The notes beneath the pieces were generated by a model. That model was not told the DNA's origin, made no database searches, and saw only the letters and a program-made list of their open reading frames with translations. Source: Candidatus Hydrogenedentota bacterium (lineage in GTDB: Bacteria; Hydrogenedentota; Hydrogenedentia; Hydrogenedentales; JAGMZX01). Taken from it: DNA of 64,000 bases. The DNA lies in NCBI GenBank assembly GCA_018005585.1, contig JAGMZX010000010.1:830-64829 (forward strand), read 5' to 3'. Positions 13,228 through 64,000 of this stretch are shown in pieces; position 1 is the first letter of the stretch; each line of letters opens with the position of its first letter. The translations under genes and the position numbers were made by a program.

Positions 13228-14178
13228 TTACACGCGCTTCTGCCGGGCCAGACTCAGCATCAGCCGCACCTCGCCCTTGCCGATACCAAGTTCCCGCGCG
13301 ATTTGCGCGACGGACATGCCCGCCGCGTCGTACTCGACGACCCGTTGCCGGAGCGGGGCGAGCACGTGCGCCCCGTTGTCGCCTGGCCGCGGCAGCGGCG
13401 CATCGCTGCGCACGGCAGGTGCAGCCGCGGGTTCGATGTTCAACAGCGCCTGGAAGGCGCGGCGCGAGGCGTCGCGATCCTCAGGCGACGAGGGCGGCGC
13501 TGTTTCCTGTTCCGCCGCTGTTTCGCCCTCCAGGTCGTCGCCAACCCATTTCTCGAAGGAGCGTTGCTCTTTCGCCGCATCGGCATCGGTGGATGCGCGC
13601 AATTGCGCAATGACGGCAGACAGAGCAGCGGCGGCGTTCATGGTTTCGGGCTCGTGGGGCGGGACGTCCGCGTGACCAGCACCGAGAGCGCGCTCCGGTT
13701 GCGGGGACGGCGCCGGGGCCGCTCCCGTCTGCTGCTTCCGGGCATATTCTTCCACGACGATATCCTGCTGTGGCTGCGGCGGGGCTGAAGCGGCGCGCGA
13801 AGCCTGATGGATCTGCGCCAATTGCTGCTGTACGGCGCGCAGCGCCGCCTTCGCTCTCTCGATTTCGTCGGCAAGTGTCTGCGTCGTCTCATAGAGACGC
13901 ACATTCTTTTCAAGGCTCTGCGCGAGGACCTGCTTGACCCCGGCGATCTTGTTTTCCAGGTCCGTATTGAATTGGCGGGCCAGGTCTTTCTGCTGCCGCA
14001 CCACGTCGCGCATGGTCTGGAAGAGTATCGTGATTTCGGCCTTGTCGGTTTCGGTCTGGCGGCGGCGCTGCTGTTGGCGGCGTTCGTTCGCCGCATACGC
14101 GACAACAAGCACCGCGAAACTGGCGCACCCGATGATGCCAACGCCGAAAGAGGCCCACATCAACAGCGTTTGCAGCAT
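13228..14178 (-). CDS. membrane-anchored coiled-coil protein with C-terminal sigma-70 region-4-like HTH
   Basis: It has an N-terminal TM helix (MLQTLLMWASFGVGIIGCASFAVLVVAYA), a long coiled-coil/Q-rich region, and a C-terminal HTH (MSVAQIARELGIGKGEVRLMLSLARQK). Function is unknown. It is embedded in the flagellar cluster. Confidence 0.55.
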   Translation of the reverse strand: MLQTLLMWASFGVGIIGCASFAVLVVAYAANERRQQQRRRQTETDKAEITILFQTMRDVVRQQKDLARQFNTDLENKIAGVKQVLAQSLEKNVRLYETTQTLADEIERAKAALRAVQQQLAQIHQASRAASAPPQPQQDIVVEEYARKQQTGAAPAPSPQPERALGAGHADVPPHEPETMNAAAALSAVIAQLRASTDADAAKEQRSFEKWVGDDLEGETAAEQETAPPSSPEDRDASRRAFQALLNIEPAAAPAVRSDAPLPRPGDNGAHVLAPLRQRVVEYDAAGMSVAQIARELGIGKGEVRLMLSLARQKRV

Positions 14179-14221
14179 CTCCTCCCGTCCTTCCTCATCG
14201 CGCCGGCCGCCCGCGGCGCAC

Positions 14222-14545
14222 TCAAACCGTCACGTCGAGTTGGTGCTCATCCATGTCCGCCGGCGGCTGTTTGTGTTCATTTTTCGGGGCATTCTCGCCC
14301 TCCCGCTGCTCCCGCTTGCGCCGCCGCCGGCCCACATAGGGATTCGCCCGGCGCAGTTCGCGGTCCACCTGCTCGCTTTTCTGCTCGGTCTGCTGAACCG
14401 TCGTCTCCGCGTTGGCGTGCTGCTGCTGCTGGGCCGCGTGAGCGCGCTGCTGGGCCGCGAGCGACGCCCGGTCCGCGACCTGCTGGATGCGTTCCGCGGC
14501 ATGCACGCGCGCAATCTCGGTAAAGGGGTCGATCGGCTGGGGCAT
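14222..14545 (-). CDS. hypothetical Gln-rich protein downstream of fliA (possible flagellar regulatory factor)
   Basis: The start MPQPIDPF overlaps the fliA stop (ATGA). It is low-complexity and Q/R/E-rich. No family was recognised. The track ORF extends into fliA in an alternate frame. Confidence 0.4.
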   Translation of the reverse strand: MPQPIDPFTEIARVHAAERIQQVADRASLAAQQRAHAAQQQQHANAETTVQQTEQKSEQVDRELRRANPYVGRRRRKREQREGENAPKNEHKQPPADMDEHQLDVTV

Positions 14546-15315
14546 CACGATTCTCCGCGCATGACCTCGCGCAGCCGTTTCACCGCGGCGCTGTGTATCT
14601 GGCACACGCGCGATTCGGTAACTTCCAGCACAACGCCGATTTCCTTCAGCGTCAATTCCCGGTAGTAATACAAGTTTAGCACTTTTTGCTGCTGTTCCGG
14701 TAGCTCCAGAATCGCGTCCGCGAGCCGTTGCTGCCGTTCCTTGGCTTCCAGCAACTGGCTCGGCGTCGGCGATGCGGCGTCGCCCGTAACGTGCACCTTG
14801 CGGATTTCCTCCGCATCGGCGGCGGGCAGATACTCGTCAAGCGAGAGCACCTGCGCCGTCTGCAACTGGGCCACCGTCTCTTCGACGTGCTGCACCGTCG
14901 TTCCCAACGCTTCCGCAAGGTCCTCCGCGGACGGATCCCGCCCCTGCTGGTGCCGGAGCTTCTCGCGGGCCGCCCCGATTTTGCGCGCCATGTTTCGCAG
15001 GGAGCGCGGCGCCCAGTCCAGCGAGCGAATCTGGTCAATGATCGCGCCGCGAATGCGAATGGACGCATAGGTGGAAAACTTGATGTCCTGCGTGTGGTCG
15101 TAACGCTGGACGGCGTCGATCAGGCCCATTACCCCCCACCCCACCAAGTCGTCCATTTCAACATTCGACGGCACGTGGATCGCCATGCGCCCCGCGATGA
15201 ACCGGACCACGCGCATATAGTGCATGATGAGCCACTCGCGGGCAGCGTCGTCGCCCTGCTCCTTGTAGCGCACCCATAATTCCCGTTCATCCATATTGGG
15301 TAACGTCGTGGTCAA
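14545..15315 (-). CDS. fliA: RNA polymerase sigma-28 factor FliA/WhiG
   Basis: Region 2 (DLVGWGVMGLIDAVQRYD..KFSTYASIRIRGAIIDQIR), region 3 and region 4 (LKEIGVVLEVTESRVCQIHSAAVKRLR) are all present. At 256 aa the length is typical. Confidence 0.9.
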   Translation of the reverse strand: MTTTLPNMDERELWVRYKEQGDDAAREWLIMHYMRVVRFIAGRMAIHVPSNVEMDDLVGWGVMGLIDAVQRYDHTQDIKFSTYASIRIRGAIIDQIRSLDWAPRSLRNMARKIGAAREKLRHQQGRDPSAEDLAEALGTTVQHVEETVAQLQTAQVLSLDEYLPAADAEEIRKVHVTGDAASPTPSQLLEAKERQQRLADAILELPEQQQKVLNLYYYRELTLKEIGVVLEVTESRVCQIHSAAVKRLREVMRGES

Positions 15316-16256
15316 CGTAAGCTTTGGATCCTCTCCTTGGGACTGATGATTTCCGTGATGCGCAGGCCGAACTTCTCATCCACGACGACCACGTCGCCCC
15401 GGGCAATCAGCCGGTCGTTGATCAACAGCTCGACCGGTTCTTCGATGAGATGGCCGACTTCGACGATCGAGCCCGGGCCAAGCCCAAGGATATCGCCAAC
15501 GGCCATCTCTATCCGTCCGAGCCGGGCAGTCGCGACAAGCTTGATATCCAACACCATGTCTATATTCGGCGGGGTAACCGGCGCGGCCGCGGCCTGTCCC
15601 GGGGGCTGCAGCGCGGCTTCGCCGAATCCGCTGAGGATATCGGACATTTCCTCCGCGCTTAGCGTGGGCTCCGGCTTGGGCGCGGCGGCGCCGGCCAACA
15701 TCTTCGGAGGCACCGCCTGCTCAAACGTATCACTGAAGAGCAGCACGCCCGAGCCGCTGGTCCCCTCCGCGGAGAACGAAAACGGCGCGGCCGTTACGGC
15801 GCGGCCCAAATGGTCGAGCAGCGCGGCCGCGTCCTCGGCCACATGCTCCTCGATGCGGGTCTCCTCCATTCGCTCAATGGTTCGGCCCGCCGCTTCCAGC
15901 AGGCAGGTGACCGCGCCCCCCAAGGCGGATTCCGCCACTTCCCTGAGCACGGCGCGTTGCCCATCGTCCAGCGCGCTCATGACAACCGGCGCCTCTCCTT
16001 GCACCTGCGCGGCAATCTGCACCGCGTCCGCCACACGAAACAACAGAGCGACGCTTCCGCCGTCCTGGGCGACCCGAGAACTCATGCAGACGCCGAAATC
16101 GGCCAGATAGCCCGCTGCGCCCGCTGTATCCAGGGCGTCCGCTCCCATCACGTCGAAGCGGAACGTCTTGGCCAGCAACGCGTCGAGCACGTCGAACGCG
16201 CCCTTCAACAGGTGTTCCGCCACCACCTTTGCCACGGCAGACTGCATCACGGGCAC
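15312..16256 (-). CDS. fliY: flagellar motor switch protein FliY (CheC-like N-domain plus FliN/SpoA C-domain)
   Basis: The C-terminal SpoA/FliN domain reads LDIKLVATARLGRIEMAVGDILGLGPGSIVEVGHLIEEPVELLINDRLIARGDVVVV. The N-terminus carries a CheC-like repeat region. Confidence 0.85.
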   Translation of the reverse strand: MPVMQSAVAKVVAEHLLKGAFDVLDALLAKTFRFDVMGADALDTAGAAGYLADFGVCMSSRVAQDGGSVALLFRVADAVQIAAQVQGEAPVVMSALDDGQRAVLREVAESALGGAVTCLLEAAGRTIERMEETRIEEHVAEDAAALLDHLGRAVTAAPFSFSAEGTSGSGVLLFSDTFEQAVPPKMLAGAAAPKPEPTLSAEEMSDILSGFGEAALQPPGQAAAAPVTPPNIDMVLDIKLVATARLGRIEMAVGDILGLGPGSIVEVGHLIEEPVELLINDRLIARGDVVVVDEKFGLRITEIISPKERIQSLR

Positions 16257-16257
16257 C

Positions 16258-17238
16258 TCACATCCGCACCAAAGACACGAGTTGCACGGCGCTCTGTTCG
16301 CCCCGCCGGCCCGGGCGGGCCTGAAAGGCGGGGCAGCCGCCGACTTCCAACACGATAGCCTCCTTGGGCGAAGTGTGCAATTGCACCACGTCGCCCACTT
16401 GGAGACGGGCGATATCGCTCAGGCTTAGCTGTGCCTGACCCAATATTGCGTCGACCGGCACCACCGCCCGGCTCAGTATTTGTTCCACAATGGCGCGCGT
16501 AGCGGAAGACAGCTCCGGCGACAGGCGGCGCGTGAAGTGGGCCTGCTGCGAAATCTGGTCCAGGACCGGGTTGATGACCATGAGCGGGATGCACATATTC
16601 ATGGTGCCGACGGCTTCGCCGACGTGCATCTCGTACCCCACGAGCACCACCATCTCGCTGCCGGCGACAATCTGCACGATCAGCGGGTCGCTCTCCGTCT
16701 GGAGAATGGAGAGGTCGAATTCGATAAGCTGCTCCCAGGACCGTTTCAGGCAATCGAGCATCATCATGACTATCCGCTGCCCAATCCGGTCCTCGATCTC
16801 GGTGAGTTCACGCGGCTCGGCCAGCGTCGCGCCTTTCCCGCCCAGCACCCGGTCGACAATGGGAAAGACCATGGACGGGCTCATCTCGATCACCGCCGTG
16901 CCGTCCAGCGGCGCCATGCTGATCACCGTGAGGGATGTGGGCCGGGAAACGGACAGAATGAATTCGTCGTAGGTCAATTGGTCCAGGGAGGTCAGGTCAA
17001 GCCGCACGACCGTACGCAGGAACGGAGGAAAGAGGATGTTCACTTCCCGCGCAAAGGCGTCGAAGAGGCTCTGCAGCCCCTTCAATTGCTCCTTGGACAC
17101 GCGCTCGGGACGCCGGAAATCATAGGCCGTCAACTGCATGTCGGCCGGGACCGGCACAGCGGGCGCCGTCTCGACTTCACTGTCAGAGACAGCGCTCAAC
17201 AAAAGGTCGACTTCGTCCTGACTCAGTATGTCGGCCAT
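16258..17238 (-). CDS. fliM: flagellar motor switch protein FliM
   Basis: The N-terminal CheY-binding motif MADILSQDEVDLLL is present. At 326 aa it matches FliM topology and ends in a SpoA-like C-terminus. An AGGGAG RBS precedes the start. Confidence 0.9.
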   Translation of the reverse strand: MADILSQDEVDLLLSAVSDSEVETAPAVPVPADMQLTAYDFRRPERVSKEQLKGLQSLFDAFAREVNILFPPFLRTVVRLDLTSLDQLTYDEFILSVSRPTSLTVISMAPLDGTAVIEMSPSMVFPIVDRVLGGKGATLAEPRELTEIEDRIGQRIVMMMLDCLKRSWEQLIEFDLSILQTESDPLIVQIVAGSEMVVLVGYEMHVGEAVGTMNMCIPLMVINPVLDQISQQAHFTRRLSPELSSATRAIVEQILSRAVVPVDAILGQAQLSLSDIARLQVGDVVQLHTSPKEAIVLEVGGCPAFQARPGRRGEQSAVQLVSLVRM

Positions 17239-17775: not shown

Positions 17776-18684
17776 ATGGGAATGCGCTTGTCGCGCCGAG
17801 GCTTCATCGGGGCGTCTGCCGCCGCACTCGCGGCCGCAGGCGCCATTTCCGCGCAGGACGCGCCCGCGAGGCAGCCCGTGGTTTGCGTGTTTTCGAAACA
17901 CCTACAAGGCCTGTCGGCGTACGGTGCGCTTGCGGCGCAAGCGCGCGGCCTCGGTTTTGACGGAATCGACCTGACCGTGCGCGAGGGCGGCCATGTGCTG
18001 CCAGGGCGCGCCGCGGAGGACCTGCCGCGGGCGGTTGCGGCGATCCGCGCGGAGGGGCTTGAGGTCCCCATGATCACCACGCGGATTGCCGACGGAGACG
18101 ACCCGGACGCACGGCCCGTTCTGGAAGCGGCCGCGCGGGCGGGAATCCGGCATGTGCGCGTAGGGGGGCACAGGTATCCCTTCGCGGGAGACCCGATTGC
18201 GTTCCTGGACAGCCTGACGGCGAAACTGCGCTCGCTGGCCTCATTGCTGGAGGAATACGGCCTGGAGGCGGGCTACCACAACCACAGCGGCATGCTGAAC
18301 GTGGGCGCGCCCGTCTGGGACCTGCATTATCTGCTGGAGAGGGTGGGGTCGGAGCATCTGGGCTCGAATTTCGACCTGGGTCATGCCATGGTTGAGGGGT
18401 CCTACGGCGATTGGCAGGTCACGACGCGCCTCATCGCGCCTCGCACGAAGATGGTCTCCGTCAAGGATTTTCGCTGGGCAGGGAACAAGCCCGAATGGAC
18501 GCCCCTCGGCGACGGGATTGTGCCTATCACCGATATGCTTCGTCTCCTGCGCGCGGCGCGCTTCCGCGGCCCCGTCTCCATCCATTTCGAGTACGACCTT
18601 GGCGATGAAACGGCCGCCCTCGAACACATGCGCCGCGACGTGCAGACCCTGAAGTCCCACCTGAGCGAGGCGGGGTTCGCGTGA
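17776..18684 (+). CDS. sugar phosphate isomerase/epimerase (xylose-isomerase-like TIM barrel), Tat signal
   Basis: The N-terminus has the twin-arginine motif RRGFIGASAAALAAAGA. The AP-endonuclease-2/xylose-isomerase-like fold is indicated by (..GYHNHSG..FDLGHAMV..). Confidence 0.8.
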   Translation: MGMRLSRRGFIGASAAALAAAGAISAQDAPARQPVVCVFSKHLQGLSAYGALAAQARGLGFDGIDLTVREGGHVLPGRAAEDLPRAVAAIRAEGLEVPMITTRIADGDDPDARPVLEAAARAGIRHVRVGGHRYPFAGDPIAFLDSLTAKLRSLASLLEEYGLEAGYHNHSGMLNVGAPVWDLHYLLERVGSEHLGSNFDLGHAMVEGSYGDWQVTTRLIAPRTKMVSVKDFRWAGNKPEWTPLGDGIVPITDMLRLLRAARFRGPVSIHFEYDLGDETAALEHMRRDVQTLKSHLSEAGFA

Positions 18685-18751
18685 CGCCCATCGCGGGGCC
18701 CGGCCAAACGCCCGGGGCGCGACGGCAGAATCAGGAAAAGCAGGAAACATC

Positions 18752-19603
18752 ATGCGTATCTTGTGGGTGCATGCGGGCGGCGTCGGAGACTTCATCCTGT
18801 CTTGCCCCGCCCTCGAATGCCTCGCCGCCGAACACACGGTCGAGGTAGCAGGCCTGCTCGAACGGGCGAGCCTCGCCGTGGCCGGAGGTCTGGCGGCGCG
18901 GGCGCATTCGCTGGACGCGACCGGCTTCGGCAGCTTGTGGGGCACGGCGAGCGCCAGACTGCGGGGCTTTGTGTCCGGCTTTGACCGAGCCGTGGTCTGG
19001 ATGCGCGATGACGACGGCATGATCGCTTCGGGTCTCCGGGACTGCGGCGTGAAAGAGGCGACGTGCTTCCCCGGATTGCCGCCAGGCAATTGGCCGCGCC
19101 ATGCTTCCGAGTATTACCTCGAGCGCCTGGGGCACGCGCGCCACGCCCCCTTCCGGTTGCGGGTCCCTCCCGCGCCGGGCCAGGATGTGGTCATTCACCC
19201 GGGCAGCGGCAGCCCGAACAAGAACTGGCCACGGGAGCGGTTTCAACAACTCTCGGAAAGCCTGACCGCCCAAGGCCGGCGGGTGGCATGGTGCCTGGGA
19301 CCGGCGGAAGAAGCGCTCGCCCCGCCGGAGCAGTGTCCGTCTCTCCGCGGCCTCCCGCTCGTCGAATTGGCGCGTGTATTAGCGGGCGCGCGCCTGTATG
19401 TGGGCAACGACAGCGGCATCACGCATCTCGCCGCCGCGGCCGGCTGCCCCACTATCGCCATTTTCGGCCCGACCGACCCGAGAGTATGGGCGCCCCGCGG
19501 AGAACACGTGCGCGTTCTGCAGGGACCGCCGTGGCCCGACACAGAGGAAGTGCTTCAAGAGTCATCCGCGGTGTTGGCGGCAATTCCATTCATGGGCGCA
19601 TAA
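18752..19603 (+). CDS. glycosyltransferase family 9 (heptosyltransferase-like)
   Basis: GT9 motifs are present (..IHPGSGSPNKNWP.. and ..GNDSGITHLAAAAGCPTIAIFGPTDP..). Confidence 0.8.
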   Translation: MRILWVHAGGVGDFILSCPALECLAAEHTVEVAGLLERASLAVAGGLAARAHSLDATGFGSLWGTASARLRGFVSGFDRAVVWMRDDDGMIASGLRDCGVKEATCFPGLPPGNWPRHASEYYLERLGHARHAPFRLRVPPAPGQDVVIHPGSGSPNKNWPRERFQQLSESLTAQGRRVAWCLGPAEEALAPPEQCPSLRGLPLVELARVLAGARLYVGNDSGITHLAAAAGCPTIAIFGPTDPRVWAPRGEHVRVLQGPPWPDTEEVLQESSAVLAAIPFMGA

Positions 19604-19636: not shown

Positions 19637-20491
19637 TCAACTTCTAACCAGGTACCACCAGCAGGATGGCAGCCAGCACGCCTGCTGGTCTGGACGGGCA
19701 GATTCGATAATGGACACCATGTCGGCGCGCGACAGAAGACTCGCGTATTCGAGCGGCGTTCGCCCTTCGTCATCTTGAACATACAAGCAGGCGCCCTTTC
19801 TTATCTGCGCCCTTACCGCGGCGACATCATTGTTGAGTATCGACCTGAAAAGGCTGTGTCCCCTGGCTTTGTGTTTCAGCTCCCGTTGACTGTCCTCCAA
19901 CGACGGCTTCAGGTGCGCCTTGACCAAGGCTGTTCTCAGCAGACCGCACCTGGAGGATTCTGTGATTGCATGCTTCAGTATGTCCGGATACTGCATGATT
20001 TCTATGCCCAGAACGTAGATTAGTGATTCCACAAGCGAGGTGTTCTGCGTGCGGCGCGCCAGTTCAATACAAGTGTCAAGCCAATTATTGCGCGTTTCCC
20101 GGCGGCAAGGAACACGCCGGACGAGGTGATAGAAGACGAGGTCCGCGAAACGAACATGAGTCCGCGCAAACGAAAGCCATAGCGAAAGTATGCTGTCCCA
20201 ATCCAGCGCCTGCCCGCAGTGAATAGCCCCGGTGCGCACCGCGTCCGAGAAGCCTCGCGAGCGGCTATTCGAATTCGAGCGCTGCCGGCGGTCAATAGCC
20301 GCGATGCGCACCGCGTTGCACCATCGCCCGTGGGAAGTCAGTTCATGGAGGTCCATAGTCTCGAAGGCAGCCTGCAGGTCATTGATGCTTTCGACCGCGC
20401 TGCGAAATCGCGGCGCATAACAGCCGCAGAAAGGCGTGAAGCACCATCGTCTCTCTTCGGCCTCAGCAAGCACTTCAAGGAAGCTGTTACT
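19637..20491 (-). CDS. ankyrin-repeat protein with Cys-rich N-terminal region
   Basis: The C-terminus has an ankyrin repeat (LNNDVAAVRAQIRKGACLYVQDDEGRTPLEYASLLSRADMV). The N-terminus has Cys motifs (WCFTPFCGCY, WCNAV, HCGQA). GC content is visibly lower than the flanks. The start is set at MSNSF, where the track ORF extends to 20569. Confidence 0.6.
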   Translation of the reverse strand, partial: SNSFLEVLAEAEERRWCFTPFCGCYAPRFRSAVESINDLQAAFETMDLHELTSHGRWCNAVRIAAIDRRQRSNSNSRSRGFSDAVRTGAIHCGQALDWDSILSLWLSFARTHVRFADLVFYHLVRRVPCRRETRNNWLDTCIELARRTQNTSLVESLIYVLGIEIMQYPDILKHAITESSRCGLLRTALVKAHLKPSLEDSQRELKHKARGHSLFRSILNNDVAAVRAQIRKGACLYVQDDEGRTPLEYASLLSRADMVSIIESARPDQQACWLPSCWWYLVRS

Positions 20492-20704
20492 CATTTGGAA
20501 TGGCCCTCTTCCAACGAACCGGCCGTGCATCGCCAAGCCTGGTTGGACCTGAACGGTAACTCCAGGCACGGGGACGCCGTCCCTGCAGGTGAACCAGGTC
20601 TTATCTCTGGCTCCTTCACATTCACCGGCGTATTCGGGATGGTCCTTTCAATACAAGGCGCCCAAAACTATCCGATGGCATCTGTGTGCCTGCTCGTCGG
20701 CTCT

Positions 20705-23059
20705 TTACTCGCGGATAAGCTGTCGCAGCTTTTTCCACACAACCGCGGAAGGCATTCCGCCCTCGCGGATACGACGGACCAGGCGCTGCCAGTCCCGGCG
20801 GTGTCCCGCCGACACTTCGCGCCGACGCAGCACGGCGGCAAGAAGACCGTTCTGCTCCGCGTCAAGCGCGGTGGCATCTACCCGGCGCAGGAAGTCCAGC
20901 AGCCGGCGCACGTGCGCGGCGAAGGGGCCGCACTGCTCCGTGTTGCCTTCCTGGAGGAGCGCCATCAACAGCGCCAGGGACGCAGCCACGCGCGCCGCGG
21001 GCGAATCGCCCGGCATGCCGCCGTCCGGTTCAAGCAGGCCCGCTAACGCGACCATGTCGTCCATATGGGCCTGCGCATCTCCCCCGCTGTCGCGTTTGCT
21101 CTTCCTCACAAAGCCGCCACGGGGCGCGCTGACAGGTGCTGGCTCCGCGCACACTGCAAAAAACCCGCTATCTACTCTTTGAAATAGTACATCCTCCCTA
21201 TAGTCAGGACTACATAAAAGTAGGGGACTCGGCGCAAAATAAGACTCGAACTGAACGCCCTCCGGCATGCCGACGGGCACGACGCGCGTTTCCGGCATTT
21301 CGCCCGCCGCGTCGCCCGCGCGCGCGGCCACGGCCACAAGCGTCATGACGCGGCTGCTCAGTTCGTATTCGCGGCTGACCTGCTCGAGTGCCTCCCTCCA
21401 CGTGCCGTCAGGCGTCTCCCACGCGCTTTGAGCGCGAGTGATCAGGCGCGCGCCCTGCAGCTGCCGCAGGGTCTCGCCAAGCCCGTCCGCCTTTGCATCG
21501 ATGAGAATCCGGTGCGACCGTGTTTCCCGGGCATGGTTCCACGTCAAGACCAGCGCGCCGGGCCCGTCCGCCGCGCACGACCCGAACAAGAGCAGTGGAT
21601 TGTCCTGGAACACGACATCGCGCGGCTGCGGTTCGAGCACGGGTTCCTGTAGCCCTTCGAAAACGCAACGCAGTTCTCGTGCGACCGGCTGCGCCACGGA
21701 TGAAAAGAGGCGCAGCGTCTCCATGTCCACCCGTTCGCGCGGAGTGGCAAACCGGCTCACCCCGCCGGTCTCTTGCGCCAGCAGCGCGAGGAACCGGTCC
21801 TGGCTTGCGCTGCCGATGCCGAGGCAATGCAGCCGCGCGTTGCATCGCCTGACCCGCGCTATGATGTCCTCGGTCCCGAAGACCTGGCCGTCCGTAACGA
21901 GAAAGAGGTCGCCGCCCTGGTCTCCGAGGAGCAGCACCGCGGCGTCCAGACCCTGAGCCAGCTCCGTGCCGCCGCGCGCATGCACCGTATCCAGGAAGCG
22001 CGCTGCCGCATCGCGGTTTTCCATGGTCCCGTTGAGCAGCGACGGACGAAACTGCTCGCTCGTCGAGTCGAATGCGACGATGCCGAACGTGTCCTGCTCG
22101 GACAGGGCGCCGAGGCAGGCCTTGACGGCATTGCGCGCCTGCTGCATGGGCGCGCCGCTCATCGAACCGGAGCGGTCCAGCACGAACACGACGCGCCTGT
22201 GCGCTTCCAGGGGTTCGCCAAAAACCGTTGACGGAACCAGCACCGCGAAGCGGCCCCTGCCGCGCGCGTCCGTCCCGGCGTACGAGAGTACCGCGGCGGC
22301 GTCTCGCCGGGCCTCGAGGACCAAGTCCCGATTCGGCACATCGCCTTCGGTCGCCAGTTGCACGCGCACATCCCCGTCCCGGGTCAGGCACCGGATGGCG
22401 TGGGACGGCGAACTGACCTCGACGGCTGCGCCGCCGAGGCGGACGTCGAGGTCGAATCCGACGCGGTGCAGCGATGACGCATCCTGCTTCCAGACAGGCA
22501 ATACCAGGTCGTCAAACGGCGCATTGGGCAGTTCGAGTTCTCCCGTGGCAGTGTCGTCAAAGAAGGCGCGGGTCTGCGCGTGATAGGCGGGCGCAAGCGC
22601 GAAGGGAAACCGGAACCGCAGACCATCGTCGCGGGCTTCCACGCCCGCGAGCAGCTCGATCATGACCTGCACGTCTTCGCCCGGCTTCAGATTGCCCACC
22701 GTCAGATTCACGATGCCGTCGCGGTACGTGCGCGCCATGGTCGCAAGATGGCCCGCCTCGAGCCCGGCCTCGTACGCCTCCTGCGCTTCCGCCACGGGCC
22801 GCAGTTCCGAATGGACGTCAAAACCCGCGCCCACGACGCGAAACCGCTTCAGCGCGGCGTCGCGCGGCAGCATGAACGCATAGACCACCTCGAGCGGATG
22901 GTCTTCGGCCGAGCGGAAACCGTGGCGCACCACGAGGTGCGCGCCCACGGGCAGGATCGTGCCGGTCAGCCACAACTCCTGCATCGCCAGCCGGGCGTCC
23001 CGTCCGTCCGCCGCGCTGCATACGGAAAAAGAGCCCCCTTCAAGTGTTGTCGTACTCAT
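20705..23059 (-). CDS. VIT domain plus von Willebrand factor type A (vWA) domain protein
   Basis: 784 aa. An N-terminal VIT-like region is followed by a vWA domain with the MIDAS motif VLDRSGSMSG..GGTELAQGL. A C-terminal region of about 200 aa is unassigned. A GGGAG RBS precedes the ATG. The 5' end overlaps the MerR gene. Confidence 0.8.
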   Translation of the reverse strand: MSTTTLEGGSFSVCSAADGRDARLAMQELWLTGTILPVGAHLVVRHGFRSAEDHPLEVVYAFMLPRDAALKRFRVVGAGFDVHSELRPVAEAQEAYEAGLEAGHLATMARTYRDGIVNLTVGNLKPGEDVQVMIELLAGVEARDDGLRFRFPFALAPAYHAQTRAFFDDTATGELELPNAPFDDLVLPVWKQDASSLHRVGFDLDVRLGGAAVEVSSPSHAIRCLTRDGDVRVQLATEGDVPNRDLVLEARRDAAAVLSYAGTDARGRGRFAVLVPSTVFGEPLEAHRRVVFVLDRSGSMSGAPMQQARNAVKACLGALSEQDTFGIVAFDSTSEQFRPSLLNGTMENRDAAARFLDTVHARGGTELAQGLDAAVLLLGDQGGDLFLVTDGQVFGTEDIIARVRRCNARLHCLGIGSASQDRFLALLAQETGGVSRFATPRERVDMETLRLFSSVAQPVARELRCVFEGLQEPVLEPQPRDVVFQDNPLLLFGSCAADGPGALVLTWNHARETRSHRILIDAKADGLGETLRQLQGARLITRAQSAWETPDGTWREALEQVSREYELSSRVMTLVAVAARAGDAAGEMPETRVVPVGMPEGVQFESYFAPSPLLLCSPDYREDVLFQRVDSGFFAVCAEPAPVSAPRGGFVRKSKRDSGGDAQAHMDDMVALAGLLEPDGGMPGDSPAARVAASLALLMALLQEGNTEQCGPFAAHVRRLLDFLRRVDATALDAEQNGLLAAVLRRREVSAGHRRDWQRLVRRIREGGMPSAVVWKKLRQLIRE

Positions 23060-23462
23060 TCTGTGTCTCCCGTTCCTTTCTCAGATGTTCCGTCAAAGCG
23101 GCAATTCCCCGAATCACCCGCTTCATGCGCCATCCTTCAAGGTCACCGCGCACCTCGACTGTCACGTCCGGCGTCACTTGGAAGCGCCAAACCGGGACCG
23201 GCCGCGGCATCCGGCCTGGTTCAGGGTCCCCGGACTGGCGCAGCCGGATTTCCGCCAAGGTCAGACCCTCCGCCTGCAATTCCTGGATGCGCCGGATACC
23301 CGCAAGATGGTCCCGCGTGTACGCCGCCGCGCGCCCGGCCCGCACGGGGCCCGGCAAGACCCCTATTGCGATATACAAACGCACCGTCCGCGGCGAAACC
23401 CCGGCCGCGTCGGCGAGTTCTCCCAGTTTGAATTCCTTGGTCGAATCGGCACTCATGACCAC
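23040..23462 (-). CDS. MerR-family transcriptional regulator
   Basis: The N-terminal HTH reads KLGELADAAGVSPRTVRLYIAIGVL. It overlaps the start of the VIT-vWA gene by 20 nt on the same strand. Confidence 0.8.
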   Translation of the reverse strand: MVMSADSTKEFKLGELADAAGVSPRTVRLYIAIGVLPGPVRAGRAAAYTRDHLAGIRRIQELQAEGLTLAEIRLRQSGDPEPGRMPRPVPVWRFQVTPDVTVEVRGDLEGWRMKRVIRGIAALTEHLRKERETQNEYDNT

Positions 23463-23487
23463 CGTGACCTTCCTGTGTTACGCGTCC

Positions 23488-23516
23488 ATTATATCGCCAA
23501 TATTCGACAGTGTCAA
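23488..23516 (-). promoter_or_regulatory. consensus sigma-70 promoter (TTGACA-17-TATAAT) driving the MerR/VIT-vWA genes
   Basis: The minus strand reads TTGACActgtcgaatattggcgaTATAAT. The -10 element ends about 25 nt before the MerR start. It lies in an otherwise GC-rich intergenic region. Confidence 0.55.
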
Positions 23517-23638
23517 GTTTATGCAAAAAAAGATACGGGGGCGCCGCGCTTGTGGATGTGACGGTGGAGAAGACGAACGAGATGCATGCACGGGCGCGGC
23601 GCTCGCAGTGCCCGTGGATGTAACGCTTCTTCGTCTCT

Positions 23639-25093
23639 TTACTGGAGTTGGAGCTGGTTCAGGATTTCCGGGTCTTCTTCGTCCCAGGCGAGGACGGTAT
23701 GACAGAGTTCGCAGTCGCCGCTGATGGCCTGTCCGTCTTTCGATTCATGGGAGTCATCATGGCAACGGAAACAGCCCGGGAAGGGATCCTGGTGGCCGAG
23801 GTTGTTGGGATACGTGTTCCAGGTCACGTTCATTTCCGGGAATACGTTGCGGCCGTAAATGCCCTGCAATTCCCGGATCGCGGCTTCAATAGCATCGCCT
23901 TGCTGCGCGGCAACATCGGGATAGTCCTTGGCGTAGAAATCGCGCACATGGGCGGCAATCAGATCGAGGTCGCCCGCGGCGCCTTGGATAGACTCGAGGG
24001 CTTCGACGCCGACACGCTTGATATAGGGCAGCGAGGCATCGATCGCGCCCGCGGCCAAGGACTGATCCACGGCCTTGGCGGGCGCGTGGAAGACGTGCGT
24101 GGGCCGGTTGTGACAGTCGATGCAATCCATCGTTCGGAATTCGGCGCGCGCGATTTCGTCTTCCGGCATCTGCAGGTCCGAGGCGCGGAACTCCGTAACC
24201 GTTCCGTCCGTCCCGGTGACCCGGACGATGCCAATCTTCTGCCGTTGTTCGTCCAGGGGCAGGTAGGTGGTGGTCTTGGCCGGGTCGATATGCCAGCTGT
24301 GGATGCCATGGCCACCGCCGTGGCCGCCGCCGATGTGCATGAGCAATACCGAATGCACGAGGGAGTTCGTCTCGTCATCCATATACTTCGGCACGACCCG
24401 GATGCGGTCGCCCGCGAATTTTTCGGGCCAGTGGCATTCCTCGCAGGTTTCCTTGGACGGGCGCAGTTCGTGCACGGGGCTCGGAATGGGGCGCGAATAG
24501 GTATTCAACGTGACCGCGAAGACCTGGCGTACGCCGGAGAGTTTCGACTTGGCGAACCAGTCCGCGCCGGGGCCGATATGGCACTCGACACAGGCGACCT
24601 TGGAGTGAGGCGAGTTGAGATACGCCGTATACTCCGGCGCCATCACGGTGTGGCAGACGCGGCCGCAAAACTCGACCGACTCGGTATATACCACGCCCTT
24701 GTAGCTGATGATGCCGATGATGAGCATATTGACTACGGAGAGCAGCGCCACGACGACGGCGATGCTGCGCACCCGCGGATTGTTGAAGTCCAGGACGGGG
24801 AAAGGCAGCGGCGGACCTGCGGCGGTCTCCGGCGTCTGTTTGCGCAACCGGAACCGCTGCCACAACGCACCCGCCGGGACAATCAGCAATCCCAAGACAA
24901 AGAACCCGGGCAGGACCAGGAACGTCACAATGCCAAGGTAGGGCGAATCGACCCTTCCCAGGATGCCCAAAGCCATCGTCACGGCAATCAGGATCGTGCT
25001 AGCCGTTACCAGGGTCGCCCCCAGCATCGTGACCCAGTTGGCCGTGAAGATGGCGGCAAACCCGCTCAGGATTCGGAAGATCACGCTGAACAT
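23639..25093 (-). CDS. membrane-anchored six-heme c-type cytochrome, NapC/NirT/NrfH-superfamily-like (putative quinol dehydrogenase)
   Basis: There are six CxxCH motifs (CGRVCH, CVECH, CEECH, CIDCH, CFRCH, CELCH). There are N-terminal TM helices. A strong RBS GAAGGAGG lies 4 nt before ATG-TTC (MFSVIF). The track ORF extends to 25240 without support. Confidence 0.8.
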   Translation of the reverse strand: MFSVIFRILSGFAAIFTANWVTMLGATLVTASTILIAVTMALGILGRVDSPYLGIVTFLVLPGFFVLGLLIVPAGALWQRFRLRKQTPETAAGPPLPFPVLDFNNPRVRSIAVVVALLSVVNMLIIGIISYKGVVYTESVEFCGRVCHTVMAPEYTAYLNSPHSKVACVECHIGPGADWFAKSKLSGVRQVFAVTLNTYSRPIPSPVHELRPSKETCEECHWPEKFAGDRIRVVPKYMDDETNSLVHSVLLMHIGGGHGGGHGIHSWHIDPAKTTTYLPLDEQRQKIGIVRVTGTDGTVTEFRASDLQMPEDEIARAEFRTMDCIDCHNRPTHVFHAPAKAVDQSLAAGAIDASLPYIKRVGVEALESIQGAAGDLDLIAAHVRDFYAKDYPDVAAQQGDAIEAAIRELQGIYGRNVFPEMNVTWNTYPNNLGHQDPFPGCFRCHDDSHESKDGQAISGDCELCHTVLAWDEEDPEILNQLQLQ

Positions 25094-25424
25094 CAAGCCT
25101 CCTTCTTTGGGGCGCATGCTCCGCCAGGCGCCGACAATTCCGTGCATTATGCGGTATCGGGCAAGTCTACTGCACACGCCCGGCCATTGCATCCGGAAAA
25201 AGGACCACGTGCCGCGGGTTACTCCGGGAAAACTACCCACTATTCGGCATACTGCGATTGCGTCTCAGGAGAGTGTCCGGCAAGGACGCCACAAGAGCCG
25301 GGGGGACGTGCAGGAATTTTGGGTACTTGTTACGTGCTGCAGTGGCGCGTGTCTGCCCCGTGTTTTTCACGGATGTATTGGCAAAAACTAATGATGTATG
25401 CTTCCTTCACCTTAGCGAAGGCCG

Positions 25425-26276
25425 ATGGGGAGAGCTATTTTGGAAGTTCGTCGCATGCAACGCCGGAATTTGCCGGTTTCGTTTTCACCGCGCCGTCGCT
25501 CCCTTGTGTCCCTGGTTCGCGCATGGGGCGTCTGTCTCCTGGCGGCGGCTCTGTTCGGGCTAAGCGGCTGCCCCGGCAAACCTGGCGAGGTCGGGACACA
25601 GGTCTGTCTGCAGTGCCACAATGGCGTCCTGGCGCCGGACCGTTCCGAATTCCCGGAGAGCGCGCATGCCGTGGTCGCCTGTGAGACCTGCCACGGTCCG
25701 GGCTACCTGCACGTGCGTAACGGCGGCCGCGGGGGCCTGCTCATTCAGACGCCGGAAAACAGCGATGCCCAGTACGGTCTCTGCGGGCGCTGCCATGAGA
25801 CGGAGACGGCGGACCATCTGGAGAGCCGCCACGGTTCCAGCGGCGCGTTGAACTGCGCCGATTGCCATGACGTACACGGCGCGGCGCGCACGGCGCCCGC
25901 ATTCGCCAACAACAGTCTCTGCCTGACATGCCACCGGCACGCCGGTTTCGCGACGAACGCCGAAATCGAGGCCCACACCTTTCATTCGGTCGACCCCGCG
26001 GGGACTGGCGCCAGCCGCTGCTCGGGCTGCCATATGGTTCCGCTGCAGCGGTTCGACCAGGCGGAGGGCGTCTACAGCCATACGATGGTCCCTGTCCCGC
26101 CGGTCGCGTCCAACGAGGCGGCGGAGGCGGGTGTCACCCCGACGCCGCCAAACTCGTGTTCGGGCATCGAGGGGTGTCATGACGGGACCGTGCGGACGGC
26201 GCCGGTATTCGATGTGGACACTCCGGAGCATAATGAGTGGCTCCAGATTGTCTACGACGCACGATATGGGGAGTAA
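25425..26276 (+). CDS. six-heme c-type cytochrome lipoprotein (periplasmic)
   Basis: There are six CxxCH motifs (CLQCH, CETCH, CGRCH, CADCH, CLTCH, CSGCH). The signal peptide ends in the lipobox LSGC. The start is 25425 or the ATG at 25455. Confidence 0.8.
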   Translation: MGRAILEVRRMQRRNLPVSFSPRRRSLVSLVRAWGVCLLAAALFGLSGCPGKPGEVGTQVCLQCHNGVLAPDRSEFPESAHAVVACETCHGPGYLHVRNGGRGGLLIQTPENSDAQYGLCGRCHETETADHLESRHGSSGALNCADCHDVHGAARTAPAFANNSLCLTCHRHAGFATNAEIEAHTFHSVDPAGTGASRCSGCHMVPLQRFDQAEGVYSHTMVPVPPVASNEAAEAGVTPTPPNSCSGIEGCHDGTVRTAPVFDVDTPEHNEWLQIVYDARYGE

Positions 26277-26360
26277 GAGTCTGTGCGGAACCCGGGCCAT
26301 CCAGGAATACAGGACCGCAATGCGGACGCGAAAGGGCGTCCGCACCGGGGAGGAATCCTT

Positions 26361-27923
26361 GTGAAAAGAGCGGGTCGGGGACGTTGGCTGGTTTGGGGTA
26401 TTGGCCTGTTCGCGGCGAGTATCGCCGCCGTCCCCCATGCCCAGGAAACGGAAGCCGCGGCGCCGGGCGATACGGCCGTCGCGGCCGAAGACGCGGCAGG
26501 CGGCGCTGCCGCCGAAGAACCCGCCCCGGCGGGGCGCGACTGGGTCAGCGGCAGTTTCCGCACCGAATTGGATACGGCATGGACGGATGAAGACACGGAC
26601 GTGGACCTGAACCAGACGCTGCGCTTGAACCTGGACCCCGCCAACCATCCGCGGCTGCATATGCGCGGGCTCGTGGGCCTGCACGAAGACCTGGACTCGA
26701 GCGAGGCGCAGTCGAGCGTGCTGCGCGACATCAACGACGGGTCGGGCGAGTCCGTGCGGGCGCGCCTCTACTTGCTGTATCTCGACGTGGACGATGTCTG
26801 GGGCGACTCCACGCTGCGCATCGGCCGCCAGCGCATCGAGGGCGGCGCGGCGTACAACCGCATCGACGGCGTTTCATTCTCTCAGCGGGCCGGGCGTTGG
26901 GATTGGTATGTGTTCGGCGGCGCGCGCGCGTCCGTGTACGACTCCACTTCCGGCGACCTGGCGGCCGGGGGCGGCGTCGCGTTCCGGCCCGACGGCCGCA
27001 CGCGGCTCAGCCTGGACACGTATTGGGGCGAAAAGCACCGCGAAAATGATGATGAGGTGTATCTGAGCCCGCTCGCCGCACTGCTGGGTCTGGAGTATCC
27101 CCGGCGCATCAAGTCAGATATCGGCGATAACCTGGTCGCGCTCAGCCTGTGGCGCCAGCTGACGCCGAACACGAGCCTCTTCGGCCGCCTGCGGCTGCAC
27201 GACGGCGAATTGGACGAAATCAGCGCGCAACTCGCCGGGTATTGGCCGGGGGCGGACCTGAGCTACGAGGTCTCGTACCGCGGGCGCTTCGCCACGGCAT
27301 CGGACCGCGTGGACGACCTGACCTCGTTCTACGAAGTGTTGGGAAGCTATGAGGAATTTCACAATTTCCTCGCGGCGCTGCACAAGCCGATTACGGAACG
27401 CATTGAACTCTCGCTGGAAGCCGAGTTTCACAACGCGGACGACGACTGGCAGACGGCCAACCGCGATTTCAACCGGTACGCGGCGATCTTGACGGTCGCC
27501 CCGCTCTTCAAGGCGACGGACATTACCGTGGCGCTAGAAAAATGGGATATCAGCGGCGGGGACGGCACGTGGACGTTCACCGGCGAACTCACTCATCATT
27601 GGGGGGACACGCTGGCCTTGACGTTTGGGGCGGATTATGAGCGGTACGAGGACCGCATTACGCAGTACTACGCGCCGCTGGGCATTGTGGATAAGCTGCT
27701 TGTGGCGTTCGTACCAGGATACTACGCGGGCTACAATCCGCTGGTTTTCCTGTTTGACCAATACGCCGTGACCACCTACGAAAACGTTTACTCCCTCTAC
27801 ACGCGGCTGAAATGGGCCGTACGCAAGAATCAGGACGTCTCCCTCGAGGTTACCTACGAAGAGGACGACGGGCCCGATTCGCCATACTGGCGCGTGCAGG
27901 CGGGCTACACGATTCGGTTCTGA
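26361..27923 (+). CDS. outer-membrane beta-barrel (porin-like) protein
   Basis: A GTG start at 26361 has a GGAGG RBS. The signal peptide reads VKRAGRGRWLVWGIGLFAASIAAVPHAQE. It has an acidic N-terminal linker, alternating-hydrophobic beta-strand patterns and a C-terminal ...YTIRF (terminal Phe). It is flanked by cytochrome genes. Confidence 0.6.
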   Translation: MKRAGRGRWLVWGIGLFAASIAAVPHAQETEAAAPGDTAVAAEDAAGGAAAEEPAPAGRDWVSGSFRTELDTAWTDEDTDVDLNQTLRLNLDPANHPRLHMRGLVGLHEDLDSSEAQSSVLRDINDGSGESVRARLYLLYLDVDDVWGDSTLRIGRQRIEGGAAYNRIDGVSFSQRAGRWDWYVFGGARASVYDSTSGDLAAGGGVAFRPDGRTRLSLDTYWGEKHRENDDEVYLSPLAALLGLEYPRRIKSDIGDNLVALSLWRQLTPNTSLFGRLRLHDGELDEISAQLAGYWPGADLSYEVSYRGRFATASDRVDDLTSFYEVLGSYEEFHNFLAALHKPITERIELSLEAEFHNADDDWQTANRDFNRYAAILTVAPLFKATDITVALEKWDISGGDGTWTFTGELTHHWGDTLALTFGADYERYEDRITQYYAPLGIVDKLLVAFVPGYYAGYNPLVFLFDQYAVTTYENVYSLYTRLKWAVRKNQDVSLEVTYEEDDGPDSPYWRVQAGYTIRF

Positions 27924-33776: not shown

Positions 33777-35531
33777 TTATTCTGCTTGCGCGGATGCGGA
33801 GGATCGCCGCAGATAGCGCATCTTCTTGTATACAAGCACGACCACGCCGGCCGACAGGGCCAGGAGCAGGACGGTAGTGGCGAGCAGCAAGTAGCTGTGC
33901 TCGGTCCAGTACTTGTTGAACAACAGCAACAGCGAAGCGGTGGTGGTCACCATCATGAATAGGGCGGGGGCAAGAGCGAAGATGTATTGAGACCCCCGGA
34001 GAATCAGCCACATCGTGACGGTGATCAAACCCAGCGCCGCCAACAACTGGTTGGCCGCCCCGAAAATGGGCCAGAGCGCATCGAATGCGTTGGTGATCGC
34101 AAACAGCCACATCAGGACCACGGCCAGACCGGAATTGAACCAGTAGTTCTTCATCAGGGCGGGCGTCCGGGGCAGCAGCGTGGACCAAAGCTCCTCGAAG
34201 AGGTACCGGTTCAGGCGCACGGCGGCATCCAGCGTGGTGATAACGAAGCCCTCGACCAGCAGGATGCCGAAAACCGTGCCCAAATCCACCGGGATGCCCA
34301 GATGATTATCGACCAGATGTCCGACTGAAAGACTGAACGCGAGGATGGGATTGGATTTCACGCCCAGCTCTTTGACCGGGAACACGATGCTCTTATAGTC
34401 GACAAAATTCATGCCGACGCCGATCGCCAAGAGCACGCACACGGCCAGCAGCGATTCGAGGAGCATGGCGTTGAAGCCGATACGCCGCGCATCGCGCTCG
34501 GTATCCAGTTGCTTGCCCGTCGTGCCGCCCGCGACGAGCGAGTGAAATCCCGAGATGGCGCCGCAGGCGATGGTGATGAACATCATCGGATACATCAGGC
34601 CGAGGTTGGCCGTACCCTCGGCCATATTCATGGCCGGCATCGAAAACGGCGCGTTGCGGAACCCCGCGACGAGCAGTCCCGCGGCCAACAGCCCGATCCC
34701 GGCATACAACACCTGGACATTGATGAAGTCGCGCGGCTGGAGAATGACCCACACCGGAACGCCCGCTGCGAAGAAGACGTAGACGGTAATGAGGATCAAC
34801 CAGGCATTGCGGGACAGCACAAACGGGAAATAGATGCCAACCAAGATCGACCCGATACAGATGACCGAGGCAAGCAGATAGGCGGGAACGCTGCGGAGAT
34901 TCCGCTTATAGAGGAGCCAGCCGAGCAGCGGCGAGAGGCAGGTGATGATGACCACGGAAGAAGAGGCGATGCCGCCGATACGGCCCACAACCACGCCGTC
35001 CCGCACCACCGTCCTGAGCAGCGTCTGCCCTTCAGACAAGCCCATTTTGGCCAAGGGCCACATCGAGGTCAACGATGCCGCCACGGCGTTCAGGAAAGAG
35101 GACGTGACCAGCACCAGCATCAGGATAGTGAACATGATGAACAGCAGAAATCCGCTCTTGCCGAGGGTCTTCTTGGCGATCTCGGCCATGGAACGTCCGC
35201 CTTCGCGCATACTTATGAATAATGCGGTGAAATCATGGACCGCTCCAATGAATACCGCGCCGAGCACTACCCAAAGCCACGCGGGCAGGAATCCGTAGAG
35301 AATGGCCATGGTCGGGCCGATGATCGGTCCCGCACCGGCAATGGCGGAGAAATGATGCGCAAAGAGCACATGCGTCTTGGTCGGCACGAAATCTCGTCCG
35401 TCTTCGCAAGTGTGCGCGGGCGTCGGACGGCCCGGGTCCTCGCCCAGCGTGCGCGCGAGATAGGCGCCGTACCAACGGATAGCCAGCAGATAGGCGGCAA
35501 TCGCGAACCCAAGAAAACCCAAGACTATCAT
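33777..35531 (-). CDS. cstA: carbon starvation protein A (peptide/pyruvate transporter)
   Basis: The conserved CstA N-terminus is present (..HHFSAIAGAGPIIGPTMAILYGFLPAWLWVVLGAVFIGAVHDF..). It is a 584 aa polytopic membrane protein. A GGAGGA RBS is present. Confidence 0.9.
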   Translation of the reverse strand: MIVLGFLGFAIAAYLLAIRWYGAYLARTLGEDPGRPTPAHTCEDGRDFVPTKTHVLFAHHFSAIAGAGPIIGPTMAILYGFLPAWLWVVLGAVFIGAVHDFTALFISMREGGRSMAEIAKKTLGKSGFLLFIMFTILMLVLVTSSFLNAVAASLTSMWPLAKMGLSEGQTLLRTVVRDGVVVGRIGGIASSSVVIITCLSPLLGWLLYKRNLRSVPAYLLASVICIGSILVGIYFPFVLSRNAWLILITVYVFFAAGVPVWVILQPRDFINVQVLYAGIGLLAAGLLVAGFRNAPFSMPAMNMAEGTANLGLMYPMMFITIACGAISGFHSLVAGGTTGKQLDTERDARRIGFNAMLLESLLAVCVLLAIGVGMNFVDYKSIVFPVKELGVKSNPILAFSLSVGHLVDNHLGIPVDLGTVFGILLVEGFVITTLDAAVRLNRYLFEELWSTLLPRTPALMKNYWFNSGLAVVLMWLFAITNAFDALWPIFGAANQLLAALGLITVTMWLILRGSQYIFALAPALFMMVTTTASLLLLFNKYWTEHSYLLLATTVLLLALSAGVVVLVYKKMRYLRRSSASAQAE

Positions 35532-63983: not shown

Positions 63984-64000
63984 GGGATACAGCGCGCGCA

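Follow-up and report, generated by a model that had tools for sequence, protein, structure and literature searches.

In a 64-kb stretch of a metagenome-assembled genome of Candidatus Hydrogenedentota, referred to here as the window, three consecutive genes lie on the minus strand: a gene for a small MerR-like regulator, a gene for a protein that combines a VIT and a vWA domain (VIT-vWA), and an accessory open reading frame (ORF). In an initial annotation of this DNA, the regulator gene was described as overlapping the start of a 784-aa VIT-vWA gene by 20 nt; the overlap can be read directly from the sequence, and Pfam matches bear out both domain assignments. In GenBank the VIT-vWA product is named "VWA domain-containing protein", and that of the accessory ORF "hypothetical protein" (MBP8128554.1). 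Signal peptides and transmembrane (TM) segments are absent from all three proteins, and no riboswitch, small RNA or tRNA was found near the locus. Judging from sequence comparison, the MerR-like gene and the VIT-vWA gene form an old, co-evolving two-gene cassette that is spread across more than ten phyla, and here we describe this cassette, the candidate operator in its promoter, and the way in which it may be regulated. Coordinates are collected in Table 1.

A conserved gene pair

For comparison, 80 related loci were taken from species-representative genomes, and all of their ORFs were clustered all-against-all. Their carriers belong to the Acidobacteriota, Planctomycetota, Myxococcota, Chloroflexota, Armatimonadota, Hydrogenedentota, Verrucomicrobiota, the Obscuribacterales, cyanobacterial sister groups and others. 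In 54 of the 80 loci, among them all ten of the close ones, the gene directly upstream of VIT-vWA, in the same orientation, is a MerR-like one; six of the loci counted as lacking it have no upstream sequence present. Whether the neighbourhood is conserved, a check suggested together with the initial annotation, can thus be answered positively for the pair. The clustering gave no third conserved neighbour, leaving the MerR-like gene as the sole recurring one, and 18 flanking genes, taken as a sample from ten loci, are of mixed kinds, most of them metabolic. The two genes overlap or abut in most related loci, and the nearest relative of the window, locus L081 (VIT-vWA 77% identical), has the same 20-nt overlap, by which the two genes are translationally coupled.

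In a neighbour-joining tree, the MerR-linked VIT-vWA proteins fall into four clades, with MerR-less paralogues in separate clades. The MerR-like partners are of two subtypes, a short one of ~140 aa and a long one of ~200-250 aa, and since these subtypes follow the VIT-vWA clades, the two genes appear to have evolved as a unit. Furthermore, the GC content of the pair (0.64-0.67) is normal for the genome and L081 keeps the cytochrome/MerR/VIT-vWA/GT9 synteny, which together argue against a recent horizontal acquisition of the pair. The same pair is also annotated on two betaproteobacterial plasmids, from Massilia and Aquabacterium, indicating that the cassette can be mobile in Betaproteobacteria. 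The cassette has an AbiEii/AbiGii toxin and a DNA methyltransferase as neighbours on the Aquabacterium plasmid (L090, 1-2833), and the immunity protein Imm74, a fragment of a relaxase and IS256 on the Massilia plasmid (L089, 784-2367). No description of a MerR/VIT-vWA module was found in the searchable literature; the initial annotation had likewise known of no described MerR-coupled VIT-vWA/ankyrin arrangement. The domains themselves are already known and RefSeq labels both genes generically; it is the pair, its co-evolution and its operator-promoter that appear to be undescribed.

A promoter with a candidate operator

The initial annotation had also singled out the promoter upstream of the regulator gene as a textbook TTGACA-17-TATAAT sequence. 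All 12 hexamer positions indeed match the consensus, and it is the sole match in the window even when one mismatch is allowed, with a chance expectation of 0.03. It is followed by a leader of ~25 nt with the Shine-Dalgarno sequence AGGAAGG at 23474-23468. What had not been noticed is that this perfection extends beyond the window: the "textbook" promoter is, from the comparison of loci, a conserved and putatively operator-bearing trait of the whole family. Between the window and L081, 28 of 29 promoter nucleotides are identical, while the flanks have diverged, and the promoter of L082, one of the loci (L082-L087) of a second Hydrogenedentota lineage, is likewise a perfect consensus. A scan upstream of the MerR-like genes gave near-consensus promoters nearly everywhere, with spacers of mostly 16-17 nt. 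In the clade with the long MerR subtype, the ATG is located only 6-9 nt after the -10, which points to leaderless mRNA and lends independent support to the promoter calls.

The -35 of 39 out of 52 anchored promoters of related loci reads TTGACA(G/C)T, and additional copies of ACAGT/ACTGT are located in the spacer, just 5' of the -35, or just 3' of the -10. In the window, GACACTGTC forms a 9-bp palindrome at 23514-23506 that overlaps the -35 and, with the conserved right arm TGGCGATA, makes up the candidate operator. The window, L081 and L082 have TTGACACTGTCGAAT-NNN-TGGCGATATAAT in common, with variation confined to the three bases in the middle of the spacer. In L017 (ACACTGTCATATGACAGTGT) and L062 (ACACTGTAATATTACAGTGT), perfect palindromes of 20 bp have their centre in the spacer, and in L033 palindromes flank the -10. 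The upstream 200 nt contain ACAGTG/CACTGT at a density of 5.37 per kb, compared to 0.29 per kb over all loci. Moreover, at least two ACAGT/ACTGT copies fall within a 70-nt promoter window in 38 of 54 loci (0.06 expected), and of the TTGACA[GC]TG 9-mers in 624 kb, 31 out of 37 fall in upstream regions. The motif also accompanies the cassette on the Massilia plasmid.

LexA boxes differ between the carrier phyla. As the same ACAGT motif is found throughout, it seems to travel with the cassette, and for a motif that is co-inherited in this way the simplest reader would be the MerR-like protein itself. The MerR-like protein may as such have the ACAGT/ACTGT repeats as its operator, in which case the cassette would be autorepressed. 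A LexA/SOS box was considered for the repeats and discarded, both for the phyla with differing LexA boxes and for a spacing that is not CTGT-N8-ACAG. More generally, a promoter that looks "too perfect" for a GC-rich genome can point to an embedded operator.

A MerR-family protein without an effector domain

The regulator carries the MerR-type winged helix-turn-helix (HTH), matching Pfam MerR_1 (PF13411) with an E-value of 1.9e-14 and 53.9 bits against a cutoff of 21.6. Of its two possible starts, the ATG at 23456 is the likelier because it lines up with the start in L081. In an AlphaFold2 model with a predicted local distance difference test (pLDDT) score of 77.6, built from a shallow alignment, the winged HTH (aa 13-76) is followed by a disordered Pro-rich linker (79-85), a beta-hairpin (91-105), a helix (111-138) and an acidic tail. 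Foldseek superposes the HTH on PbrR, CadR, NmlR, RacA and GlnR over ~70 residues only, at a root-mean-square deviation of 1.7-4 A for NmlR, CadR and PbrR. The C-terminal module is kept in 55 of 55 partners, many of which also have the acidic tail. For its family the protein is atypical: it has no cysteines and no effector domain, and its promoter spacer is 16-17 nt.

A cytoplasmic VIT-vWA protein with a private C-terminal domain

In the VIT-vWA protein, the vWA domain comes after the VIT domain and contains a complete metal ion-dependent adhesion site (MIDAS), consisting of D295-x-S297-x-S299 (nt 22163-22177), T365 and D390, all invariant across 30 homologues. At E<=1e-10 we retrieved 1316 homologues, mostly full-length proteins of ~780 aa that are 45-52% identical. 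Its profile relatives in the PDB are ITIH4 (9c4f, 6e-35), PARP4 (1e-32) and ITIH1 (6fpy, 3e-27). Neither a TM segment nor a hydrophobic N-terminus is present in VIT-vWA, the maximum Kyte-Doolittle (KD) value, KD(19), being 1.33; nor does the protein match ITI_HC_C or carry a secretion signal with C-terminal processing.

No library model covers the protein past ~aa 607. The uncovered C-terminal region is thus real, as the initial annotation had it, yet with ~177 aa it is shorter than the ~200 aa then given. Beyond a low-complexity linker it folds, in the AlphaFold2 prediction, into a six-helix domain with the motif LEPDGGMPG...R...G.F..H...W, in which D679, G680, G681, P683, G684, R690, G711, H716 and W775 are invariant. 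Foldseek returned no PDB match for this domain below E 1. Among 1.84 billion representative proteins, HMMER gave 276 matches, all of them C-terminal in VIT-vWA proteins or fragments. Other architectures were looked for among these and none was found, the shorter matches being N-terminally truncated fragments. The other MerR-linked clades have different C-termini, and a betaproteobacterial clade is without the LEPDGGMPG C-terminal domain.

A proposed autoregulated cassette

How might these two proteins work together? The reading we favour, and to which we give a somewhat better than even chance, is that of a self-contained, autoregulated two-gene cassette that is induced by stress and has VIT-vWA as its effector. 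Here, the near-consensus sigma-70 promoter would drive a single bicistronic, translationally coupled mRNA, and the MerR-family winged-helix protein would bind the ACAGT/ACTGT repeats over the -35, the spacer and, in many relatives, the +1, thereby holding an intrinsically strong promoter shut. Since hexamers and spacer are already optimal, such binding is expected to repress rather than activate. The cytoplasmic VIT-vWA, with its intact MIDAS, is probably the stress-induced effector and the protein partner of the regulator; ligands of VIT-vWA supplied by stress would then shift the balance and the cassette would fire. DnaK controls HspR, and glutamine synthetase controls TnrA/GlnR; by analogy, VIT-vWA would modulate its regulator as these proteins do theirs.

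Several points count against this autoregulated cassette. The link between regulator and repeats is drawn from sequence, and contact between the regulator and VIT-vWA is pure conjecture. Gene fusions of regulator and VIT-vWA, which could have betrayed such a contact, were not seen among the homologues. Four evaluable loci within the MerR-linked clades (L015, L035, L042 and L051) have no partner gene, and the window promoter itself has a single clean ACTGT copy, its second arm having diverged. The Limnobacter thiooxidans protein LT3126, on which we draw below for stress induction, is compared by its published description and may lie outside the MerR-linked clades; the paper on it mentions no regulator and no MerR neighbour (bioRxiv 10.64898/2026.05.23.727404).

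Going one step further, the pair may be an ancient, free-standing damage sensor and effector, an extension that we hold to be possible but rather doubtful. Cellular ligands that are damaged or become exposed under radiation, oxidative or heat stress would be captured by the MIDAS, altering the regulator and letting the cassette fire. This capture could either free the regulator, whose acidic tail or beta-hairpin-helix would normally occupy VIT-vWA, or alter its hold on the ACAGT operator. The pair would then correspond in prokaryotes to the eukaryotic intracellular VIT-vWA modules (VWA5A, PARP4 and Dictyostelium Vwa1) and might even be ancestral to them. If true, this would represent a new way of controlling a MerR-family protein. 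VIT-vWA proteins are widespread in eukaryotes (ITIH, vault PARP4, VWA5A), and the bacterial cytoplasmic version brings with it a dedicated DNA-binding partner and a recognisable operator, both of them kept in more than ten phyla. Moreover, the regulator breaks several rules of the MerR family, with no effector domain, a spacer of normal length and, in one clade, leaderless transcripts. With a 29-bp promoter-operator, a 140-aa regulator and a MIDAS protein of a kind that a recent preprint ties to surviving radiation, heat and oxidative stress, the system is compact and directly testable.

Could the regulator instead be a classical MerR switch that senses a metal, oxidant or drug and activates by DNA distortion, with VIT-vWA as mere cargo that does not interact with it? 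Its genuine MerR_1 HTH, the superposition of this HTH on PbrR, CadR, CueR and SoxR, and the palindromes of L017 and L062, which are spacer-centred as in MerR operators, would all fit. However, the protein does not have a single cysteine, and in the AlphaFold2 model the long alpha5 coiled-coil dimerisation helix and the effector pocket are replaced by the Pro-rich linker, beta-hairpin and helix. The NCBIfam equivalogs for metal, redox and HspR functions all score far under their cutoffs (22-28 bits against 117-168 for MerR, CueR, ZntR, CadR and SoxR), and the same holds for every named NCBIfam MerR subfamily. Nor does the promoter show the dyad in a 19-20 bp spacer on which activation by distortion depends; its spacer is 17 nt, those of related loci are mostly 16-17 nt, and with consensus hexamers distortion is unnecessary for activity. 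We therefore consider a classical switch improbable.

The cassette begins with a small HTH gene that overlaps the next one, and the candidate operator lies across its promoter. This layout is toxin-antitoxin-like and would also fit a toxin-antitoxin-like, abortive-infection or other defence system, in which a small DNA-binding antitoxin would autorepress and neutralise a large vWA effector until a phage or other invader triggers it. The patchy spread over many phyla in varied genomic contexts, the toxin, methyltransferase, immunity, relaxase and IS256 neighbours of the plasmid copies, and a type I restriction subunit among the 18 sampled neighbours point in the same direction. Against it, those neighbours are mostly metabolic and synteny between the window and L081 is stable. 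Profile-library searches revealed no toxin domain, be it a nuclease, a pore or another, and, if the Limnobacter protein belongs to the same family, its overexpression left growth undisturbed. PADLOC-DB 2.0 has no match for VIT-vWA or the accessory ORF and gives only the generic HTH model mad1 (31.5 bits) for the regulator, and none of 50,697 phage records gave a match; known defence systems were set aside on these database results. Taken together, a defence role seems quite unlikely.

Autoregulation could finally be secondary, if the regulator mainly served as a DNA-anchored scaffold that tethers VIT-vWA to chromosomal sites in a RacA-like manner. The RacA-DNA complex is among the structural matches of the HTH (TMt 0.74-0.79), the translational coupling suggests stoichiometric production, and the C-terminal module of the partner is conserved. 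We nevertheless find this very unlikely, as the repeats concentrate at the cassette's own promoter (the 31 of 37 9-mers mentioned above), the window has no second site, with further operator copies, as signs of a regulon, not rising above chance, and placement over the -35, -10 and +1 is precisely what an autoregulator needs.

The accessory ORF

Downstream of VIT-vWA, the initial annotation had placed a third gene of the same strand, labelled as an ankyrin-repeat protein of lower GC content. The ORF is present, with a gap of 210 nt rather than 213, in which there is no canonical terminator. Its GC content of 0.570 is indeed low compared to 0.635 +/- 0.029 for windows of the same size (z -2.2, 0.24th percentile), as is its GC content at third codon positions (0.66 versus 0.77-0.81 in the neighbours), although the window has four further stretches with values as low as this. 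The Cys-rich N-terminal motif, WC.T.FCGCY, is confirmed by its conservation in a homologue. What was taken for a 21-bp near-repeat is real but longer, a 35-nt direct repeat at 86% identity; it is a local 24-codon duplication, and in comparison with the L082 homologue an indel is seen at this place. The ankyrin label did not hold. Ank_2 matches aa 213-263 with an E-value of 0.012 and 16.6 bits, below the cutoff of 27.3; AnkY also matches weakly, and Pfam at E<=0.01 gave no match on a 310-aa form of the ORF. At most, the ankyrin character amounts to one or two C-terminal repeats, which does not make it an ankyrin-repeat protein.

The ORF is missing from all 80 related loci, and in L081 its slot holds a GDSL/AlgX gene. 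A 47%-identical homologue lies 3' of VIT-vWA in L082-L087, the one other Hydrogenedentota lineage to have it. As for the reach of these searches, a word index returned only the ORF itself, and a metagenome scan this one lineage and one remote 190-aa relative. The homologue in L082 also has a low GC content (0.586 versus 0.67-0.69 in its neighbours), so that the bias looks old or intrinsic to the gene and gives no evidence of recent transfer. By this distribution, the accessory ORF is a lineage-specific local gene outside the conserved cassette. The remote relative (L088, 1325-1897) keeps a WC.TPFC..C motif, has no ankyrin-like tail and stands beside an unrelated 302-aa gene; the N-terminal ~170 aa thus appear to form a small, undescribed domain of their own, in which a cluster of Cys residues is conserved. 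In L082, a tyrosine-recombinase (phage integrase-like) gene (14316-15419) is located ~1 kb beyond the homologue; no integrase was seen at the equivalent position of the window.

That regulator, VIT-vWA and ankyrin-like ORF form a horizontally acquired three-gene module of the 'ternary vWA' type, as initially proposed, is hardly tenable: the ORF does follow VIT-vWA in two Hydrogenedentota lineages, across a gap without canonical terminator and with a GC content below its surroundings, but it is missing from the related loci and the nearest relative, its remote homologue has an unrelated gene beside it and no ankyrin-like tail, its ankyrin signal is under threshold, there is no NTPase partner, and the normal GC content of the pair, the conserved synteny and the equally low GC content of the L082 homologue leave a weak case for horizontal transfer.

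Table 1. Features of the locus and of the adjacent cytochrome cluster, in positions of the window.
Feature	Position	Strand	Basis or remark
Core promoter, TTGACA (23516-23511)-17 nt-TATAAT (23493-23488)	23488..23516	-	12/12 consensus match
Candidate operator of the MerR-like protein	23491..23514	-	GACACTGTC + conserved right arm TGGCGATA; putative binding
MerR-like regulator, 140 aa (GTG) or 138 aa (ATG 23456)	23040..23462	-	Pfam MerR_1
20-nt overlap, MerR-like gene end / VIT-vWA ATG	23040..23059	-	read from sequence
VIT-vWA protein, 784 aa, cytoplasmic	20705..23059	-	Pfam VIT + VWA
VIT domain, aa 27-135	22655..22981	-	PF08487, E 6e-14
vWA domain (VWA_3), aa 289-437	21749..22195	-	PF13768, E 3.9e-20
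Low-complexity linker, aa ~608-653	21101..21238	-	unalignable, length-variable among homologues
C-terminal six-helix domain, aa 654-784	20708..21100	-	AlphaFold2 pLDDT 91.5
Accessory ORF, 285 aa, ATG 20494, stop 19637	19637..20494	-	210 nt past VIT-vWA
35-nt direct repeat in accessory ORF, copies 20210-20244 and 20282-20316	20210..20316	.	86% identity, 72-nt spacing
NapC/NirT-like protein, 533 aa	23639-25240	-	cytochrome cluster
c7/c3-type cytochrome, 283 aa	25425-26276	+	cytochrome cluster
546-aa protein	26283-27923	+	no Pfam match; cytochrome cluster

Surroundings of the cassette

Directly upstream of the cassette lies a multihaem cytochrome cluster (23639-27923), with a counterpart at 1-9446 of L081. 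There, 4Fe-4S and NrfD genes extend the cytochrome block, pointing to an electron-transfer complex that is membrane-located or extracellular. Between the cytochrome stop codon and the cassette promoter, an inverted repeat at 23585-23620 has 17-nt arms that are 82% complementary and folds with -29.9 kcal/mol, at a z of only -1.6; as a possible terminator, it could insulate the cassette. On the other side, a PMT_2 glycosyltransferase gene located between GT9 and AP_endonuc_2 in L081 (14200-17480) is missing from the window (17776-19603). Taken with the swapped gene 3' of VIT-vWA, its absence marks out a small region in which genes have turned over while synteny is otherwise conserved. A FliM flagellar switch gene is found at 16258-17238, 2.4 kb from the locus, and the matching relative position of L081 holds FliM, FliN and a sigma-28-like factor. 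In a 1-kb profile of the window, AT skew makes excursions at 62001-64000 (+0.28 to +0.32, with GC up to 0.70), 34001-35000 (+0.30) and 14001-15000 (-0.25). Elsewhere, three of ~12 inspected neighbourhoods have a Ser/Thr protein kinase gene a few kb or less away from the cassette (L038, 2412-5411; L063, 8693-10621; L082, 16260-18464), a proximity that may be due to chance in kinase-rich genomes.

Comparison with known systems

Within the MerR family, TnrA/GlnR and HspR provide the closest parallel. They too are small MerR-type winged-helix proteins without a ligand pocket, with a short C-terminal region available for a partner, and the gene of HspR shares an autoregulated operon with that of its partner. 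Furthermore, the GlnR-DNA complex is among the structural matches of the regulator. In contrast, the partner here would be a VIT-vWA protein and not an enzyme or chaperone, the regulator reaches only 24.8 bits with the HspR NCBIfam model against a cutoff of 105, and the candidate operator consists of ACAGT repeats, not of TGTNA-N7-TNACA or HAIR.

For the VIT-vWA protein, the best NCBIfam match is TIGR03788, the secreted VIT-vWA of the marine proteobacterial sortase target family, over aa 40-607, with 223.5 bits against a cutoff of 551.65; plasmid-borne sortase-target genes are 24-27% identical. A secreted sortase target was rejected on account of this score and of the missing signal peptide, N- or C-terminal hydrophobic segment and sorting signal. 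The vWA-MoxR and vWA ternary systems, the latter mentioned in the initial annotation, likewise contain a cytoplasmic vWA protein of unknown ligand. The analogy fails, however, as neither an AAA+/NTPase, nor VMAP, nor an effector or other third gene is conserved across the 80 loci and the 18 flanking genes, and a ternary or MoxR-type system was discarded. Neither MerR nor VIT is mentioned in the papers in which these systems are defined, among them that of Kaur et al. 2020 on the vWA ternary conflict systems (PMC7159879).

Among bacterial proteins, LT3126 of Limnobacter thiooxidans is a 708-aa cytoplasmic VIT-vWA with almost no expression at baseline. Gamma rays induce it more than 20-fold, heat and H2O2 are inducers as well, and upon overexpression it raises survival of 500 Gy ~200-fold (bioRxiv 10.64898/2026.05.23.727404). 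Like the window protein it is bacterial, cytoplasmic, of similar size and equipped with a MIDAS. Its low basal expression and strong stress induction are, by analogy, what a strong promoter under the control of a repressor would be expected to give, and in the Betaproteobacteria Massilia and Aquabacterium relatives occur together with the MerR partner.

In eukaryotes, ITIH1/ITIH4, vault PARP4, VWA5A/BCSC-1 and Dictyostelium Vwa1 are homologous to the window protein in the VIT domain, the vWA domain with its MIDAS, and the region that follows. PARP4, VWA5A and Vwa1 are moreover intracellular (PMC10539598), as is the VIT-vWA of the window. Unlike its eukaryotic counterparts, the window protein has no signal peptide, PARP or BRCT domain, and its six-helix C-terminal domain is private to the bacterial family. 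A dedicated DNA-binding partner, finally, is encoded alongside the window protein and has no equivalent among the eukaryotic ones.

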